Positions 10,856-59,088 of a stretch of DNA of 64,000 nt are shown here, one piece after another (positions within the stretch are counted from its first letter, which is position 1; every line of letters starts with the position of its first letter). Made by a program: the position numbers and the translations under genes. Under the pieces are notes generated by a model. That model did no database searches. It was not told the origin of the DNA and saw only the letters and a program-made list of their open reading frames with translations. Source of the stretch: Escherichia phage T5. The stretch lies in the sequence record AY587007.1. One strand, given 5' to 3'.

Positions 10856-11740
10856 TTATAATAATTCTTGGTATGCTTTTTGATACGCCTCAGTATCTGT
10901 AGGTGTATCTTTTGCTAACGCAATTAGTTCATCTGTTATCTGAACATTCGTACTATAACGTTGGTGGAACTCTTCTGGGATTTCTAGGTATCTATTTATG
11001 AACGCTGCAGCAAGCGGTGTAACTAACCCAATTTCTAGGGATAACTTAACTTGTTTCTCATAAATTAAATACTGAGAATCAGATGGGATTGGTGGGGTTA
11101 CATCAACTTTTTCTGGTTCTTTTTCTGGAAGCAATGGATTGTTATACAATGCTTCATCTGGAAGCACAGATTTACGCTCTTTAAATATATAAGTTTCTAG
11201 ATCCGATGCTTTAGATCCTGAGTAAACAGCGAAGATGCTAGCTTTACCTTGTGATGCCCTAACTGGTAAATAGTTAGTTGGGTAACTCCTTAATGCATCA
11301 TGGAATGGACTTCCTGAGTATTTGTATGTATCCCCATAGAGATCATCAATATTCATTCGTTCATCTTCAAAGATATGGAAAGAGCTAAATGATGGGATGG
11401 TGAAGTATTCCATCTGTAACCCATAAACTAAGAAACGATGTGCATATGCGCTAATCTTTAAGACTGTGAATGCTTTCTCACCTTCTTTATAAGAATTGCC
11501 CTTTGAAGTAACTTGATAACGCTTACAAAACATCTCTACTAAACGTTTCTCATTAATATTGAGTGAGGAATATAAACGTCCATTTAGCCCTAGAAGGGCA
11601 TCAAACATAAATGCTAACTTATCTTTTTCTTCTTGAGACAGTTCTGGAAATGGTAATACTTTGGCATTAGGAACATTATTGTTCTCTTTAGGTTTTGTTT
11701 TACCAGCATTTTGTCTTAGTTTATCTTTAAAGTTATACAT
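10856..11740 (-). CDS. hypothetical early protein
   Basis: 294-aa ORF. Confidence 0.5.
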   Translation of the reverse strand: MYNFKDKLRQNAGKTKPKENNNVPNAKVLPFPELSQEEKDKLAFMFDALLGLNGRLYSSLNINEKRLVEMFCKRYQVTSKGNSYKEGEKAFTVLKISAYAHRFLVYGLQMEYFTIPSFSSFHIFEDERMNIDDLYGDTYKYSGSPFHDALRSYPTNYLPVRASQGKASIFAVYSGSKASDLETYIFKERKSVLPDEALYNNPLLPEKEPEKVDVTPPIPSDSQYLIYEKQVKLSLEIGLVTPLAAAFINRYLEIPEEFHQRYSTNVQITDELIALAKDTPTDTEAYQKAYQELL

Positions 11741-11821
11741 TATTTATCTCTCATTTTTTAAGGTCTGGATGACCTTCTTTTTATTTTAGAGCCTCCGTAG
11801 AGGCTCATGTATTAGGAATTA

Positions 11822-12430
11822 TTAATCCTTTTTATTCTCATTAATAACAGCTCCTAGTGCTTCAAGGATAGTATCATTTATACTCCCAGGCCTAAGATTA
11901 TTAAAGTGAGTAACATAGATGGGACTTTTAAAACCTTCAGTATCCACAGGTGCTACGCTTTTCATGTCAGATTCAAAAGCTTCTTGAGTATGTTTCAATT
12001 GTGCAGAAGGTCCATAATCTTCACCAACTCGATATGAGGAATTATTTTCTATAACGCCACCGCATGGAACATTGTGCAAATCCGACGTTATTTTAGGACT
12101 GTTCCACATTGTAATTGGCCCCGATTGCCACGGATCTCGAATAGTCACAGGAGTACTAGGACGGTTAACCTCAGTCTTCACAAGCTTATAACCAGCATCG
12201 ATTAGTGTATTAATTAGATTATCAGCGGGAATACGAGCCTTGCCAAAAATCTTACGAGCGTTGTTGAGCCTACCTTCAAAATCTTTACATGCTTTAATAT
12301 TAGTGTGTGCAAAGGTTAGCTTCATAGATTTGAACTGTACGGTAGCAGTTAAATCTTTAAAAGCATAATCCCACGTATTCAGTTCATGATCTGGTACTAC
12401 TTGAATAGATTGCTGTGCATATAAAGTCAT
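11822..12430 (-). CDS. hypothetical early protein
   Basis: 202-aa ORF; contains one copy of TGTGCAAATCCGAC at 12073-12086. Confidence 0.5.
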   Translation of the reverse strand: MTLYAQQSIQVVPDHELNTWDYAFKDLTATVQFKSMKLTFAHTNIKACKDFEGRLNNARKIFGKARIPADNLINTLIDAGYKLVKTEVNRPSTPVTIRDPWQSGPITMWNSPKITSDLHNVPCGGVIENNSSYRVGEDYGPSAQLKHTQEAFESDMKSVAPVDTEGFKSPIYVTHFNNLRPGSINDTILEALGAVINENKKD

Positions 12431-53879: not shown

Positions 53880-55754
53880 ATGAATCGCAATGATGAACTA
53901 AAATACAAGGAAATCCAGTCCTTGATTAGAAACTGCAAAGAAATTATTGAGGGTTCTGCTGATGAAGAGCTTCTCTTTAATAATGCGAATAAACCCTCTG
54001 AGCGTTTCCCTACACAAAGGGATATGCTTGCAGGGGAATTGAGTAAATATCTGATTCTAGAAGAAATGCCAGTTCAGATTCGAAATGCTCATATGATTGG
54101 AGATATTCATTTCCATGATGCTGACTACGCTGCATTAGGCATGACTAACTGTTGCCTAGTAGCTCTAGAAGATATGTTGAAAAATGGTATGAAAGTTGGT
54201 AATGCTGAAATTAGTACACCAAATTCTATTACTACTGCGGCGGCTATTACAGCTCAAATTATCACACAGGTTAGCTCCCATCAGTATGGTGGTACTTCTG
54301 TAGACCGATTAGATGAAGTATTGGCCCCTTATGTTCGTAAGTCTTATGATAAGAATCATGCGTTTGCAAAACGTTGGACTAAGGATGAAGCCAAAGCATC
54401 AGTAATGGCTACGGAGATGACTGAAAAAGAAGTCTATGATGCTTGTCAGGGTCTAGAGTATGAGATCAATACGATGTTCAACTCTAATGGTCAGAGTCCA
54501 TTTATTACTTTTGGTTTTGGTCTAGGAACTTCTTGGGAAGCACGTCTAATACAGAAAGCAATACTGAAAGTACGTATGGATGGCTTAGGCATCAATAAAC
54601 GTACAGCTATCTTTCCGAAACTGGTGTTTGTTCTGCGTGATGGCGTAAATATGAAGCCTGGAGATGTTAATTATGACATCAAGAAGTTAGCTATGAAATG
54701 TACTGCTGAACGTATGTATCCAGACTATATCAGCTATGATAAGGTTGTGGAAGTTACTGGTGACTATAAAGTTTCTATGGGCTGCCGTTCATTCTTAGCT
54801 GCTACAGAAGATGGTGAAACTGCCGGTCGTAATAACTTGGGTGTTGTTTCTGTAAACTTGCCTAGAATTGCTATCGAAGCTGAAGGGAATATTGATCTAT
54901 TCTTTGATTTGCTTGAGCTACGTGTGGATACAGCGTTAAAAGCATTGGAGTGGAGAGTTGATCGCTTAAAATACATTCAAGCTAAAGCCGCACCCATCCT
55001 CTATATGTCAGGGGCCTTTGGATTACGCTTAGGGCCTGATGAATATGTATTCGATCATTTCTATAACCGTGCTTCTGTATCTCTGGGGTATATTGGTTGC
55101 CATGAAATGCTACAGTTCATGTTTGGCAAAGATGTAGATACAATGTCTGAGACCTGCATCAAGTTTGTTCAGCGTGTATTGCAGTACATGCGGGATAGGG
55201 TCGATCAGAAGAAGGAAGAGACTAAGTTAGGTTATAGCCTGTATGCTACACCATCAGAGTCCCTATGTGATCGCTTCTGTCGTCTAGACCGTGAATATTT
55301 TCCGGAGCATGAAGATATTCTGTCCAAAGGATACTACACTAACTCTCACCACCTTGATGTGGAACGTAAAGTTGCTCCTAACGTGAAATTTGATTACGAA
55401 TCTAACTTTACTCCGATTGCTTCTGGTGGGTGTATCTCTTATGTAGAACTACCAGATATGAAACGATTCCCAGATGCACTGGAATGGGTTATTAATTATG
55501 CTGCTAGTAAGGTTCATTACTTCGGTATTAATACTCCAGTGGATTCCTGTGGTAAATGTGGATTCTTAGGTGAAACAGTAGCATCCGAAGATGGATTTAA
55601 GTGCCCTATCTGTGGTAATCATGACCCTGAAACTCTTGAAGTAACTCGTCGAGTTTGTGGGTATCTTGGAAATCCAGGTGCTCGTCCGTTTAACCCAGGA
55701 AAACAACATGAGGTTATGGGCAGGGTGAAACATCAGGATATTCGAGCTAAATAA
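53880..55754 (+). CDS. nrdD: anaerobic ribonucleoside-triphosphate reductase
   Basis: 624 aa; C-terminal CxxC ... CxxC zinc ribbon followed by glycyl-radical motif RRVCGYLG. Confidence 0.7.
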   Translation: MNRNDELKYKEIQSLIRNCKEIIEGSADEELLFNNANKPSERFPTQRDMLAGELSKYLILEEMPVQIRNAHMIGDIHFHDADYAALGMTNCCLVALEDMLKNGMKVGNAEISTPNSITTAAAITAQIITQVSSHQYGGTSVDRLDEVLAPYVRKSYDKNHAFAKRWTKDEAKASVMATEMTEKEVYDACQGLEYEINTMFNSNGQSPFITFGFGLGTSWEARLIQKAILKVRMDGLGINKRTAIFPKLVFVLRDGVNMKPGDVNYDIKKLAMKCTAERMYPDYISYDKVVEVTGDYKVSMGCRSFLAATEDGETAGRNNLGVVSVNLPRIAIEAEGNIDLFFDLLELRVDTALKALEWRVDRLKYIQAKAAPILYMSGAFGLRLGPDEYVFDHFYNRASVSLGYIGCHEMLQFMFGKDVDTMSETCIKFVQRVLQYMRDRVDQKKEETKLGYSLYATPSESLCDRFCRLDREYFPEHEDILSKGYYTNSHHLDVERKVAPNVKFDYESNFTPIASGGCISYVELPDMKRFPDALEWVINYAASKVHYFGINTPVDSCGKCGFLGETVASEDGFKCPICGNHDPETLEVTRRVCGYLGNPGARPFNPGKQHEVMGRVKHQDIRAK

Positions 55755-55765
55755 GCTAATCAGCC

Positions 55766-55800
55766 CGGTTGCTAGTCGACCTGGCTTTTATTTTATTTGC
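55766..55800 (+). terminator. possible rho-independent terminator after nrdD
   Basis: short GC-containing hairpin then CTTTTATTTTATTTG; stem is weak. Confidence 0.3.
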
Positions 55801-55854: not shown

Positions 55855-56235
55855 ATGACTTTAAAACCGTATATAGTGGAGTCTACGTGTGGTGGTTTCC
55901 ACCTGGGTGTGGATGATATTGCTGAGGCTGTCTTTGCTGCCCCCGGTGATTACTCTCATATAGAGGGTGCTGGATACCCCCCCGTTATTGGTGATTGGGT
56001 GGAAACCAATCTAGATGTATCCCCTTATAACCCGTATTGCTTGTTTGATGAAGATAGAGATGAGGTAAAGTGTAATCTTGAATTTGTGTATAATAGAGTA
56101 TTAAAAGTATACCAACGTAGTCCCGATGGGTACGAAGATATTACTTGTAGTATTAAACAGTATCTTAAAGATGTATACTCTAGTTTTTCTGACGAAGACC
56201 TAGAAACAGTTGCAGTGGAGTTTAATAATGACTAA
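55855..56235 (+). CDS. hypothetical acidic protein
   Basis: 126 aa with RBS GAGGAGG. Confidence 0.5.
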   Translation: MTLKPYIVESTCGGFHLGVDDIAEAVFAAPGDYSHIEGAGYPPVIGDWVETNLDVSPYNPYCLFDEDRDEVKCNLEFVYNRVLKVYQRSPDGYEDITCSIKQYLKDVYSSFSDEDLETVAVEFNND

Positions 56236-56461
56236 GAATGTGAAACACCTTAAATATCGCTTAATCTATAACGGACGTATGGAAACGGAAGAGCTAGCTC
56301 AATTAGCTATTAATTCTAATGAGGTTATGGTGCGTGCGCTAGCAATTGAAAAGTTGCGGGCTTCTTATGAAAGTCGTATTATGGAATTAGAGGAGAAACT
56401 TTATGGACTTCTTGAATCAGAAGCTAAAAGTAGTCCAGAGGGCGAGACTTCTAATCAGTAG
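56210..56461 (+). CDS. hypothetical protein
   Basis: 83-aa ORF overlapping the previous stop. Confidence 0.4.
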   Translation: MQWSLIMTKNVKHLKYRLIYNGRMETEELAQLAINSNEVMVRALAIEKLRASYESRIMELEEKLYGLLESEAKSSPEGETSNQ

Positions 56462-56515
56462 TGGAGTAATTTTACTCCAAAATATTATCTAGGGGTTCAA
56501 GAGAGGAATCATATA

Positions 56516-57334
56516 ATGCGTAGGCTAATTATTATTAGTGGTGCAGGTTTGAGTGTTGAAAGTGGTGTACGAGCCTTCCGTACGGATACTGCTAGTGGTA
56601 AAGCATTGTGGGATGATTATGATCTAGAAGAGGTATGTAATATTCATGCCTTTCGTGGTAACTTTTATCATAAAACCCATATGTTTTACAACAAGCGACG
56701 TGAAGAGCTAAAAACTGTTGAACCTAATCTTGCGCATCTTCGTATTGGTGAATGGTATAAGAAATATCCGGGTCAAGTAGTAAATTTGACTACTAACGTT
56801 GATGACCTTATTGAGCGTGCTGGTGTTCCGCATAGTGACATTCTGCATATTCATGGGTATTTAAAAGAGGTTGTTGTAGCTGACAGCTACAATAGTAGCC
56901 ATAAACGAGTTATTGATGTAGGGTACCATTCTATTGACCCAGATGATTATAAATGGGTTAAACCTAATGTAATCTTCTTTGGTGAGCATGCTCCAGCGTA
57001 CACAGAAATGTATAATATTTTTGATGGTATTACCAGTCAAGATATGATCGTTGTAGTTGGTTGCTCTAACCAAGTAATTAACTTCTACTGGGAATTATTC
57101 CCTATTCTTAACCGTACTGCTGCGAAACTTATGGTAGTTAACTACTATGATAGTGCCCTAGCATCGAAACCAGGCTATCAAGGTATGACTCGTAGTGATA
57201 TGTACCAACTGGAAGATCGTGGTATTCCTTACTGGAGTAAAGGTGCGGTAGATGCTTTCAGTGATCCTGGTTTTATTGCTCGTGTAGAAGCTCATCTAGA
57301 GGGTAGACCTTATGTGTCAGGAAGTAAGAAATAA
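56516..57334 (+). CDS. Sir2-like (sirtuin-family) protein
   Basis: 272 aa; N-terminal GAGLSVESGVRAFR matches the Sir2 NAD-binding motif; later VVVGCSNQV resembles the second Rossmann strand. Confidence 0.45.
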   Translation: MRRLIIISGAGLSVESGVRAFRTDTASGKALWDDYDLEEVCNIHAFRGNFYHKTHMFYNKRREELKTVEPNLAHLRIGEWYKKYPGQVVNLTTNVDDLIERAGVPHSDILHIHGYLKEVVVADSYNSSHKRVIDVGYHSIDPDDYKWVKPNVIFFGEHAPAYTEMYNIFDGITSQDMIVVVGCSNQVINFYWELFPILNRTAAKLMVVNYYDSALASKPGYQGMTRSDMYQLEDRGIPYWSKGAVDAFSDPGFIARVEAHLEGRPYVSGSKK

Positions 57335-57497
57335 TGAATGGGATATTTTCATAACTGAGTCTGGCACTTGGTGCTATAGATTTGCCTATAGGTTTCCTAG
57401 TGTAAGAAAACGGCTGGGATACACATATAAAATTATCTACACTACAGATAATATATGGTTATCCTCTGGAGATGAGGGGAAACAGATATGTCCATAG
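57312..57497 (+). CDS. small protein, paralog of 57488-57670
   Basis: 61 aa; shares DIF-x-G-[ST]-WCYR with the next ORF. Confidence 0.35.
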   Translation: MCQEVRNNEWDIFITESGTWCYRFAYRFPSVRKRLGYTYKIIYTTDNIWLSSGDEGKQICP

Positions 57498-57670
57498 TTA
57501 AATCTGTGTATACACATCCCGATGATATATTTGTATGGGCGGATGGTAGTTGGTGCTATCGATGTGAGCTATGGGAAATGGACTATAAATCCGATGACTA
57601 TGGTGTCATATATGTTGATACAGTTGAGTATGATACGTTCTTAGAAAGGGACAAAAATGGAAATAAGTAA
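57488..57670 (+). CDS. small protein, paralog of 57312-57497
   Basis: 60 aa; same motif. Confidence 0.35.
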   Translation: MSIVKSVYTHPDDIFVWADGSWCYRCELWEMDYKSDDYGVIYVDTVEYDTFLERDKNGNK

Positions 57671-58163
57671 TACTCCAATTATTTTTCTAGACATTGATGG
57701 GGTGCTCAATTCGAGCATCTCCCACCATCATGCACCTGATGATGAAAAGATTTTCTTTGGAAGTGACTGGGTTTTTAAACCGCTTCTCAAGGCTTTTCAG
57801 GACTTTATTCGTCCTTCTCCAATAATGATTGTTGGGGTATCTTCATGGTTCTCTGTCAGGAATGAGATGGAGAACGTTCAGATTATGACCGGGTTAGGTC
57901 TTATAGACCGTTTTCTTGGTACAACGGATTTTACTGGTGGTGGGCTATCTAGGGGTAATTCTGTTCTTCGCTTCGTTGAAAAGCATAAGCTCAAACATTG
58001 GTGTGTGCTGGATGATGCTGGTGCTATGATGTATCAGTATCCAACGGTTATAGTCAATGGTAGAACTGGAATAAATCTTCAAGATTTAAGAGCTGTTAGC
58101 TATATGTTAGAATTTAGTCCAGATCTTGAAATGTGTAAAGCCCTACAACAATTTAAGGTGTAA
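57657..58163 (+). CDS. HAD-like hydrolase
   Basis: 168 aa; IIFLDIDGVLN matches HAD motif I. Confidence 0.4.
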   Translation: MEISNTPIIFLDIDGVLNSSISHHHAPDDEKIFFGSDWVFKPLLKAFQDFIRPSPIMIVGVSSWFSVRNEMENVQIMTGLGLIDRFLGTTDFTGGGLSRGNSVLRFVEKHKLKHWCVLDDAGAMMYQYPTVIVNGRTGINLQDLRAVSYMLEFSPDLEMCKALQQFKV

Positions 58164-58175
58164 ATATGTTTAATA

Positions 58176-58595
58176 ATGTATTCTCTAAAGAAGCTAATCC
58201 AATATTGGTTAATTTTTGGCGTACTGCTTCCAGCCAACCTGTACAATGAGGCTATTAATGCTCTAAAAATATGGTGTGAGAATAATGAAATCTCCTTTGC
58301 TTTTAAAGGCGAGATTGAAGAAGCTCCCTGTATTGGTTTAATTGTGCAGGTAGAGGATGGTCTTGAAGAGATTGTCGGCTGGAAAGAGTTAGATGAAATG
58401 GGCTTGGTTTTTGCATTAAACTATAAGCTGTTTATGCCTAATAAACACCGTATTGTTGTTAACTATAAAACCAGTGAATCTCCTGGCTTTCAAGTTAATG
58501 AACATTACGGTTGGTCTTACTCACCGGAAGAAGTAAATGATGGTATCCAAAAACTTCGTCGTTTTGGTTATCAAATTCCGGGTTTAACTGCCTAA
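58176..58595 (+). CDS. hypothetical protein, paralog A
   Basis: 139 aa; aligns with 58605-58997. Confidence 0.45.
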   Translation: MYSLKKLIQYWLIFGVLLPANLYNEAINALKIWCENNEISFAFKGEIEEAPCIGLIVQVEDGLEEIVGWKELDEMGLVFALNYKLFMPNKHRIVVNYKTSESPGFQVNEHYGWSYSPEEVNDGIQKLRRFGYQIPGLTA

Positions 58596-58604
58596 GGAGG
58601 CACA

Positions 58605-58997
58605 ATGGAACAAATATATTGGCGTCAGATTGATCCTAGTTTGGTGAAGTGTGCAGAGAAGCTGCTACAACGTTGGTTGGGGGTAAGACAAGCCTCCTTC
58701 ACTTTTCCGGAGCAGCAAATAGACGATCCCTGTATTGGTGTTTTCCTATCAGGCTACGCTGGGGAATGGGAATTGGATTGGAATGAATTGTCTGCTATGG
58801 GTTTAATTGTTGCACTAAATTTCTCTTTGTTCCATCCACGTGGTTTGGCTATATGTCGTGTGCCTGATGATGGTTGTTCGCCCCATCTTTTACGGGTGGA
58901 AGATGATATTTGGGAGTACACTCCAGATACTCTCAAAGAAGCTAAAGAACAGTTAAACCGTGTTGGGATCTATGTTCCAGGCCTGAATGATGAATGA
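58605..58997 (+). CDS. hypothetical protein, paralog B
   Basis: 130 aa with RBS AAGGAGG; tandem duplicate of the previous gene. Confidence 0.45.
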   Translation: MEQIYWRQIDPSLVKCAEKLLQRWLGVRQASFTFPEQQIDDPCIGVFLSGYAGEWELDWNELSAMGLIVALNFSLFHPRGLAICRVPDDGCSPHLLRVEDDIWEYTPDTLKEAKEQLNRVGIYVPGLNDE

Positions 58998-59088
58998 TTT
59001 TTATTAGCTGAACTCTGATTACCGAGTCATTTTGGCTCGGTTTTCTCTGTACTCAAAGACACTGATAGCACCATCCGGAAAATTTTAC

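Follow-up and report, generated by a model that had tools for sequence, protein, structure and literature searches.

In bacteria, Sir2 proteins have come to be known chiefly as anti-phage weapons that deplete nicotinamide adenine dinucleotide (NAD+), and a conserved sirtuin encoded by a phage is thus the mirror image of that story. What such a protein does for the phage is the question raised by gene T5.102 of Escherichia phage T5, a classic model phage. The gene occupies positions 56516–57334, on the plus strand, of the 64,000-nucleotide stretch of T5 DNA analyzed here (sequence record AY587007.1; hereafter, the window). Judged by its sequence and predicted fold, T5.102 is a genuine sirtuin with intact catalytic residues, and it belongs to a large clade of phage proteins in which the zinc site is gone. 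We tentatively favor, at a probability of about 0.4, a specific NAD+-dependent deacylase-type reaction carried out within an RNA-repair and NAD-linked accessory module.

The gene is already known: its annotation goes back to the T5 genome paper, and its clade has been treated in two in silico comparative papers (Iyer, Burroughs, Anantharaman, & Aravind, 2022, PMC9503650; Skliros et al., 2016, PMC5107563). Literature searches for assays of T5.102 or of any phage sirtuin found none, returning annotations and these two analyses only. A preliminary description, made from the letters of the window alone, had placed a Sir2-like protein next to nrdD; the lost zinc site, the HAD phosphatase partner, the identity with T5.102, and the published RNA-repair hypothesis are absent from it. 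The present analysis finds the link to nrdD incidental, brings out a HAD phosphatase (mislabeled in RefSeq) as the real partner, and defines a three-part signature of the clade. The interest that remains lies in a widespread phage family with a clear derived signature, a conserved phosphatase partner, and a plausible RNA-directed function.

The sirtuin encoded by T5.102

The coding sequence runs from an ATG at 56516 to a TAA ending at 57334 (819 bp, stop included) and specifies 272 amino acids; a Shine-Dalgarno-like element, AGAGAGGA, can be read at 56500–56507 on the same strand, 8 nucleotides 5′ of the start codon. The DNA of this interval is T5.102 at 99.8% identity in all three T5 records of the phage collection, where it is labeled either "putative Sir2-like protein" or "NAD-dependent protein deacetylase SIR2 family". 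That the product is Sir2-like, as first described, is borne out, well past what chance would give, by its matches to the Pfam family SIR2 (PF02146; E 1.6e-24, 87.3 bits with a cut-off of 24, profile positions 1–178 of 180) and to the phage family phrog_2162, "Sir2" (E 2e-120). Among solved structures, its sequence matches Escherichia coli CobB, the Archaeoglobus proteins Sir2-Af1 and Sir2-Af2, and SIRT5 (E 2e-17 to 4e-12). An AlphaFold2 model built with 63 homologs reached a mean predicted local distance difference test (pLDDT) score of 90.7, and when it was compared with the PDB by Foldseek, all 50 of the best matches listed were deacylase sirtuins, CobB standing first, followed by Sir2-Af1 and SIRT5. 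CobB (PDB 1s5p / 6rxj) is the best match in both comparisons, by sequence (E 2e-17, 24% identity) and by fold (E 2.4e-17, TM scores 0.71/0.85, with 0.85 on the target). T5.102 is a single-domain, stand-alone protein with the sirtuin fold. Homologs occur in 999 of 50,697 phage records (~2%), with at least 80% coverage in 848 of these; the family is acidic, with a median isoelectric point (pI) of 5.2. Against T5-like orthologs, the ratio of nonsynonymous to synonymous substitution rates (dN/dS) is 0.09–0.13, and a value near 0.1 indicates purifying selection.

To score conservation, the T5 protein was aligned to 120 homologs (121 members). The sirtuin NAD-binding signature recognized at the N-terminus in the preliminary description is present as GAGLSVESGVRAFR at residues 9–22 (56540–56581), where it aligns to GAGISAESGIRTFR of CobB, and G9, A10, G11, S13, S16, G17, F21, and R22 are each kept in at least 98% of the 121 members. 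The catalytic His and Asn positions, whose absence that description had named as the finding that would speak against it, are likewise in place: N94, D96, and H113-G114 are invariant across the 120 homologs. N94 and D96, the nicotinamide-pocket residues, lie within TTNVDD (residues 92–97; 56789–56806), which stands in for the canonical TQN[IV]D and in which T93, N94, V95, and D96 do not vary. His113-Gly114 (56852–56857) aligns with the catalytic His of the CobB "HMHG". The "FGE" substrate/NAD loop, K149-P-N-V-I-F-F-G-E157 (56960–56986), aligns to RPHVVWFGE of CobB, with K149, P150, V152, F154, F155, and E157 invariant. Further on, G182-C-S-N-Q-V-I-N-F190 (57059–57085) replaces the canonical G-T-S-x-x-V-x-P; here G182, S184, V187, and F190 are invariant, and at position 189 every one of the 121 members has N or D and none has P. 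G182-x-S184 and N209 are invariant or nearly so, and the catalytic residues as a set are invariant in 63–121 homologs at identities down to 50%. By alignment, T5.102 retains the complete machinery for NAD+ binding and nicotinamide cleavage (GAGxS, F21/R22, N94, D96, H113, S184, N209).

The protein also carries Y58-N-K-R61 (56687–56698), a Tyr-x-x-Arg anion-binding pair in which Y58 and R61 are invariant and correspond to Y92 and R95 of CobB, a numbering verified on the A76G and I131C variant sequences in the same alignment output. This pair is the hallmark of class III sirtuins and binds the carboxylate of succinyl- and malonyl-lysine in SIRT5 and CobB. The phage clade, in which the pair is retained, derives from class III sirtuins of the CobB/SIRT5 type. 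The likeness extends into the acyl pocket, where C41, Y58, R61, V95, V131, and F155 of the T5 protein align with A76, Y92, R95, I131, V162, and the F of FGE in CobB. The PDB titles of engineered CobB variants (A76G, Y92A, I131C/L, V162A/G, V187Y) name four of these positions (A76, Y92, I131, V162), which reportedly set acyl selectivity and which align with similar residues in T5.102.

Set against this conserved core are the departures that define the clade. The former zinc-ribbon region, residues 115–148 (56858–56959), contains no cysteine, yet still forms three beta strands in the model; the whole protein has two cysteines (C41, C183), with none in residues 115–150. T5.102 and its relatives in Marinobacterium have 0 Cys in this region, as opposed to mostly 4–5 (range 3–5) in canonical sirtuins, and a 7-residue deletion falls exactly at the C-H-C-C of CobB. 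The Gln of T-Q-N-[IV]-D, which contacts the NAD+ ribose, is replaced throughout the phage clade by the invariant T93; in an 80-locus comparison, every zinc-containing cellular sirtuin whose reading frame is intact carries TQN. The third change is from V-x-P to V-I-N-F; V-x-P is kept in most canonical sirtuins aligned, but SIRT4-like class II proteins have V-Y-S and so also lack that Pro. As an internal control, 185,579 species genomes were scanned with peptide patterns derived from the clade, and the ordinary sirtuins caught through the common KPNVxFFGE pattern have TQN, mostly 4–5 Cys, and mostly V-x-P, with V-Y-S again in the SIRT4-like ones. Loss of the zinc Cys, TQN to TTN, and V-x-P to V-I-N-F together make up a clear three-part signature that could guide mutagenesis. 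The TTN and V-I-N-F changes map, by alignment, next to the substrate cleft, and the three changes are compatible with a remodeled cleft, although they do not tell the purpose of the remodeling.

A comparison with individual systems sharpens this picture. CobB and T5.102 have in common the GAGxS...FR, xNxD, HG, and FGE motifs as well as Tyr-x-x-Arg; unlike CobB, T5.102 has no zinc Cys, TTN for TQN, V-I-N-F for V-Y-P, four extra residues within the cofactor loop, and a C-terminus longer by 60 residues. Human SIRT5, a desuccinylase and demalonylase, is a class III fold neighbor (Foldseek E about 1e-14) with the same Tyr-x-x-Arg, from which T5.102 departs as it does from CobB, the sequence match being limited to residues 2–118. 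Relative to canonical sirtuins of classes I–IV and U, the FGE loop is present (V152-I-F-F-G-E157), whereas Cys4, TQN, and V-x-P are not. Zinc-less phage homologs have been noted before: the Sir2/CobB proteins of the Vibrio schizoT4-like phages phiSt2 and phiGrn1 lack the zinc Cys and were predicted to be deacetylases, with T5 listed as another carrier (Skliros et al., 2016; PMC5107563). That homolog is about 41% identical to T5.102 over residues 3–209, keeps I-N-P (PMC5107563) where the T5 clade has V-I-N-F, and has MazG, HNH, and topoisomerase genes as neighbors.

The zinc-less subfamily is not confined to phages, because chromosomal proteins of Marinobacterium, Oceanospirillum, and Haliea (loci L066–L088) at 40–46% identity to T5.102, those of Marinobacterium being the closest cellular relatives, carry the same signature (zinc-less, T[TS]N, V-x-x-F) together with FYNxRR. 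The Marinobacterium maritimum gene (L068:5920-6732) is chromosomal and has as neighbors genes for a 2-oxoacid:ferredoxin oxidoreductase, a Leu/Glu dehydrogenase, and a Na+ symporter, and the flanks of the Marinobacterium gene show partial synteny between species. Among the flanking genes examined in one Marinobacterium species, none was recognized as belonging to a prophage or to RNA repair. This metabolic setting may fit a housekeeping CobB-like regulator. As a separate observation, the Marinobacterium-type sirtuins diverge faster between species than their neighbors do (77–93% vs. 92–99% identity).

Gene neighborhoods across phages

The preliminary description had the sirtuin next to nrdD and expressed with genes of nucleotide metabolism. 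The two genes are indeed close, but nrdD ends at 55754 and is separated from the sirtuin by two small open reading frames (ORFs), T5.100 and T5.101, with a putative terminator and promoter annotated in RefSeq between nrdD and T5.100; our own scan found a terminator-like hairpin at 55767–55785, 3′ of nrdD. The sirtuin belongs instead to a tightly packed early accessory operon, T5.100–T5.107, separate from nrdD ("early" referring to position as given in the T5 record). Nor does the association hold across phages: nrdD is not part of the sirtuin locus in Erwinia phage KEY, in rV5-like phages, or in jumbo phages, and a functional tie between the two was rejected. In KEY, whose sirtuin is 63% identical, sirtuin and HAD phosphatase are kept in the arrangement phoH / HAD_SAK_2 - T5.100-like - SIR2 / origin-binding protein, with no nrdD within 8 kb on either side of the sirtuin, and the rV5/Mydo-like orthologs sit in an RNA ligase/kinase cassette. 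In this KEY locus (L003:7143-8750) a T5.100 homolog lies between HAD_SAK_2 and the sirtuin, and T5.100 may therefore belong to the module.

Neighborhoods were compared across 59 viral loci with sirtuin relatives and 2 more found through specific proteins, the neighbors being scored with iterated profiles. The T5-like order is nrdD-(T5.100)-T5.101-SIR2-(T5.103/104)-HAD-DUF7415-DUF7415. The recurrent partner of the sirtuin is a capless HAD phosphatase of the T5.105 type, found 0.8–3.1 kb from the sirtuin in 31/61 loci in which the sirtuins themselves are 42–99% identical; phage KEY and locus L059 depart from the usual gene order. Klebsiella T5-like phages (L054–L056) have kept DUF7415, with no HAD beside the sirtuin. 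In T5 the partner is T5.105 (57657–58163, plus strand), a HAD_SAK_2 protein (PF18143, E 4e-20) that lies 323 nucleotides downstream of where the sirtuin stops. As a check for a PNKP-type RNA 3′-phosphatase, T5.105 was compared with the PDB: by sequence nothing matched, and by Foldseek the matches were weak (best E 3e-3), with protein-directed capless HADs closest and PNKP phosphatases not on top.

Although T5.105 is a phosphatase of this kind, its RefSeq name is "Sir2 (NAD-dependent deacetylase)". The name is explained by phrog_18062, a family of 92 positions labeled Sir2, which matches residues 77–168 of T5.105 (E 3.5e-58), the C-terminal part of the HAD. That label in turn probably arose from the naming of sirtuin-HAD fusion remnants, like that of phage DT57C, as "sir2". 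Compared with the window, the viable Tequintavirus DT57C lacks two segments (56510–57008 and 57152–58023). Gone with them are T5.103, T5.104, the sirtuin's catalytic half, and the greater part of the HAD gene, and what is left is a 90-amino-acid fusion ORF (NC_027356, 46493–46765). Sirtuin and HAD have thus been lost together in the same phage.

Elsewhere the sirtuin is found among enzymes that heal and seal RNA ends. Raoultella phage Ro1 has the arrangement Metallophos ... RNA_lig_T4_1 - cREC - AAA_33 - SIR2 - ATP-dependent ligase, in which the last two genes abut stop to start, with genes for NAPRTase and PRPP synthetase 6–8 kb upstream and NADAR 6.5 kb downstream of the sirtuin. The Ro1 arrangement is shared by 12–13 loci, and on a 608-kb megaphage contig (L062:7582-10705) an Rnl1-type ligase (E 2.7e-28) precedes a 36%-identical sirtuin by 1.2 kb, the order there being RNA ligase, arginase-fold protein, small ORF, sirtuin. 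Relatives of the HAD_SAK_2 partner adjoin AAA_33 - Rnl1 - Metallophos in three further loci (L168, L175, L176). In Serratia phage vB_SmaM-ChuuTotoro (L146:7001-10217) a homolog 39% identical to T5.105 opens an overlapping HAD - PRPP synthetase - NAPRTase operon, which ties this HAD family of "RNA repair" to NAD+ salvage. On a 279-kb jumbo contig (L060:9721-11195) the order is DUF4326 - SIR2 - nucleoside 2-deoxyribosyltransferase-like. TrudiRoth, a T5-like phage with a 52%-identical sirtuin ortholog, carries the NAD+ rebuilding pathway NARP3, which has been shown experimentally (PMC13464706). In the window, T5.018/T5.019, examined as a possible PnuC/NadR pair of the NARP3 kind, gave no Pfam match. 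The neighborhoods therefore form a triangle of pairwise links, between sirtuin and HAD, between sirtuin and RNA heal-and-seal enzymes, and between HAD and the same enzymes, with NAD+ salvage genes recurring nearby.

These contexts have a published counterpart. Section 3.7.3 of the survey by Iyer et al. (2022; PMC9503650) predicts a phage sirtuin clade to act like KptA/Tpt1 in RNA repair, and names phages SP15 (T5-like, with a HAD "Swiss-army-knife" neighbor), V5, Mydo, and Serratia BF. T5.102 falls within that clade, being 93% identical to its SP15 counterpart in DNA and 56% identical to that of V5 in protein, and the neighborhoods of Ro1, the rV5-like phages, and the HAD relatives described above independently reproduce the contexts set out in that section. 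The treatment there is one of comparative genomics, in which T5 is not singled out by name and the TQN and V-x-P changes, the Marinobacterium relatives, and the DT57C deletion do not figure.

Candidate reactions and the pathway served

The features of the protein and the context of its gene point in different directions. The NAD+, nicotinamide, and His residues, the FGE loop, the Tyr/Arg pair, the acyl-pocket alignment, the acidity, and the metabolic cellular kin argue for ordinary deacylase chemistry, whereas gene context argues for a role in RNA repair. In the deacylase-type reaction we favor, NAD+ would be spent on one specific substrate and not on draining the pool. An acyl oxygen on a protein lysine, the acyl group probably being a negatively charged one such as succinyl or malonyl, would attack C1″ of NAD+, after which His113 would drive the 2″-OH step. 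The target might plausibly be a catalytic or regulatory lysine of an RNA-repair or NAD enzyme, or of a host protein, these being candidates only. The pathway served would be phage RNA-end repair or NAD/ADP-ribose accessory functions, given that orthologs in two distant phage lineages adjoin an Rnl1-type ligase, accompanied in rV5/Mydo-like phages by a P-loop kinase and a metallophosphoesterase, and that HAD relatives adjoin the same enzymes or NAD+ salvage genes. If this is correct, T5.102 would show how phages edit the acylation of host or phage proteins. The designation in the preliminary description as a deacetylase or NAD-consuming effector still covers this outcome, but it is generic and not specific.

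Several considerations weigh against the deacylase assignment. T5.102 scores far below the CobB equivalog cut-offs (91.6 vs. 320 bits for NF040867; 101.5 vs. 243 for NF001753), and on the former ground it is not a CobB equivalog. The peptide-binding cleft may have been remodeled, since the zinc Cys4, the TQN Gln, and the V-x-P Pro have all changed. A lysine deacylase between an RNA kinase and a ligase would have no obvious reason to be there, and a Tpt1-like step would explain the position more naturally. No RNA ligase, kinase, or 2H enzyme is found in the T5.100–T5.107 operon or among the gene products that the T5 record lists over its first 63 kb. In about 8 loci (contigs of roughly 23–153 kb) the sirtuin has neighbors only of unassigned function, which by Pfam and PHROGs are DUFs and one methyltransferase-like family. 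The sirtuin-HAD module is dispensable in DT57C, its deletion from a viable phage marking it as accessory. Lastly, the literature searched holds no activity report for any member of the clade.

The next most probable reading, proposed by Iyer et al. (2022), is that T5.102 is an analog of Tpt1/KptA, moving ADP-ribose from NAD+ onto an RNA 2′-phosphate left by end healing or ligation, while the HAD phosphatase would clean up phosphates at RNA ends or the ADP-ribose phosphate that is formed. Tpt1 is NAD+-dependent and displaces nicotinamide at C1″ before the ribose 2″-OH acts, and in formal terms the sirtuin mechanism, also of two steps, parallels these two as they are outlined in PMC11417386; section 3.7.3 of PMC9503650 both defines the clade and names SP15 with its HAD neighbor. 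The invariant Y58/R61 could hold a phosphate, and the changes in the zinc module, TQN, and V-x-P suggest an altered substrate cleft. Fungal and plant RNA repair consists of Trl1 plus Tpt1, and the phage cassette, in which an NAD+-dependent enzyme joins an Rnl1-type ligase, a P-loop kinase, and a phosphoesterase, mirrors that pair: sirtuin orthologs accompany an Rnl1-type ligase and kinase as Tpt1 does Trl1, with Rnl1, cREC, AAA_33, and Metallophos around the orthologs in Ro1 and 12 other loci, Rnl1 near the megaphage ortholog, and HAD relatives beside AAA_33-Rnl1-Metallophos. This support comes from gene neighborhood, however, and the protein speaks otherwise. Tpt1/KptA has an unrelated fold and no sequence similarity to the sirtuin, and Tpt1 enzymes are basic, whereas the sirtuin family, at a median pI of 5.2, looks better suited to protein than to RNA as a substrate. 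The positions of the hydrophobic acyl-lysine tunnel look retained in the alignment, and a phosphate borne on a polynucleotide could hardly reach such a tunnel. The HAD model is nearest to protein-directed enzymes and not to PNKP, the nearest cellular relatives lie among metabolic genes, and the lack of RNA ligase, kinase, and 2H enzyme in T5 bears on this proposal too. We consider it somewhat less likely than the deacylase reading. If it proves true, an RNA 2′-phosphotransferase analog would carry sirtuin chemistry over to nucleic acids and account for a counter-defense by RNA repair that has gone unrecognized. A broader version, to which we give the same probability, holds that the whole zinc-less clade acts on RNA and not on protein, whether by removing 2′-phosphates in the repair of ribotoxin-cut tRNAs or by acting on NAD-capped or acylated RNA ends, with the HAD finishing the end or recycling ADP-ribose phosphate. 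It would make these proteins the first sirtuins with a nucleic acid as main substrate, and would open a new anti-defense route of RNA repair in T5-like and rV5-like phages.

Intact nicotinamide-cleavage residues would also serve an NAD+ glycohydrolase or a protein ADP-ribosyltransferase that reprograms the host by lowering NAD+ or tagging proteins. The defense-type Sir2 NADases (ThsA, DSR1/2, SIR2-HerA, and the Sir2 proteins associated with short pAgo) are of the same superfamily, have no zinc module, and use a catalytic Asn and His, so that loss of the zinc module is common to both. The position of T5.102 in the early region of T5 would suit such a role, and other phages ADP-ribosylate host proteins early, T4 Alt/Mod being the example given in PMC9503650. 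T5.102, though, is phage-encoded and has no fused sensor domain (SLOG) and no HerA, pAgo, or TIR partner. A PADLOC scan gave no Sir2 model at E ≤ 0.01, no defense Sir2 of the ThsA/DSR2 type appears among the 50 fold matches listed, all of them deacylases, and defense-type NADase was rejected as a family assignment on these two grounds. The FGE loop and Y-x-x-R, which are substrate-binding features, are invariant. Pairing of the SirTM kind, in which an ADP-ribosylating sirtuin is linked to a macrodomain, was also rejected, the Pfam search having found no macro domain in T5.100–T5.107. Related phages invest in NAD+ supply, as with NAPRTase and PRPP synthetase in Ro1 and NARP3 in TrudiRoth (PMC13464706), and the DNA ligase of T5-like phages is itself NAD+-dependent, as the KEY locus shows, for which reason bulk depletion of NAD+ would hurt the phage. 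Such depletion is unlikely, and the suggestion in the preliminary description that T5.102 alters NAD pools finds little support; we judge NADase or ADP-ribosyltransferase activity as a whole to be improbable. Very much less probable still is the reading that the gene is a relic with no catalytic role, either decaying or serving structure alone. The deletion of gene and HAD in viable DT57C would be in keeping with it, as would the absence of a zinc site that canonical sirtuins need for stability, but a dN/dS of about 0.1, catalytic residues invariant down to 50% identity, a confidently predicted fold, and a presence in ~999 phage records, with 848 at the coverage given above, all speak against it. 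What these estimates leave over falls to other functions.

Other genes of the T5 operon

The operon opens with T5.100 (55855–56235; this and all genes below on the plus strand), the first gene of the sirtuin transcription unit, which has the RefSeq promoter upstream and encodes an acidic 126-amino-acid protein of phrog_11748 with function unassigned. T5.101 (56228–56461; 77 amino acids, function unassigned) follows and is found upstream of the sirtuin in 28 T5-like loci. Between sirtuin and HAD lie T5.103 (57312–57497; 61 amino acids), whose start overlaps the sirtuin stop by 23 nucleotides, and its paralog T5.104 (57488–57670; 60 amino acids), which overlaps T5.105; the profile of T5.104 matches both. 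These overlapping paralogs have a common W...W-C-Y-R motif and are variably present in T5-like phages, and no family was found for them. Downstream of the HAD come T5.106 (58176–58595; PF24187, E 1e-29) and its paralog T5.107 (58605–58997; PF24187, E 3e-30), tandem DUF7415 genes with two DUF7415 stretches each, both of which survive the DT57C deletions. According to the T5 record, homologs of T5.105 and T5.107 lie a few ORFs apart in Aeromonas phage Aeh1. The T5.100–T5.107 unit is closed by a strong terminator-like hairpin at 59021–59041 (plus strand), a 9-bp stem followed by a T run, where RefSeq also places a putative rho-independent terminator.

Upstream of the operon, the longest ORF of nrdD (53880–55754), counted from the ATG at 53880, has 624 amino acids, whereas RefSeq NrdD has 574, with a start 150 nucleotides further downstream. 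The offset between the window and NC_005859 shifts from about −80 near 11 kb (window 10856–12430) to +69 at the sirtuin and +70 at T5.107; from these shifts, the window is T5 sequence with small indels relative to NC_005859, one of them a 1-bp difference near the start of T5.106.

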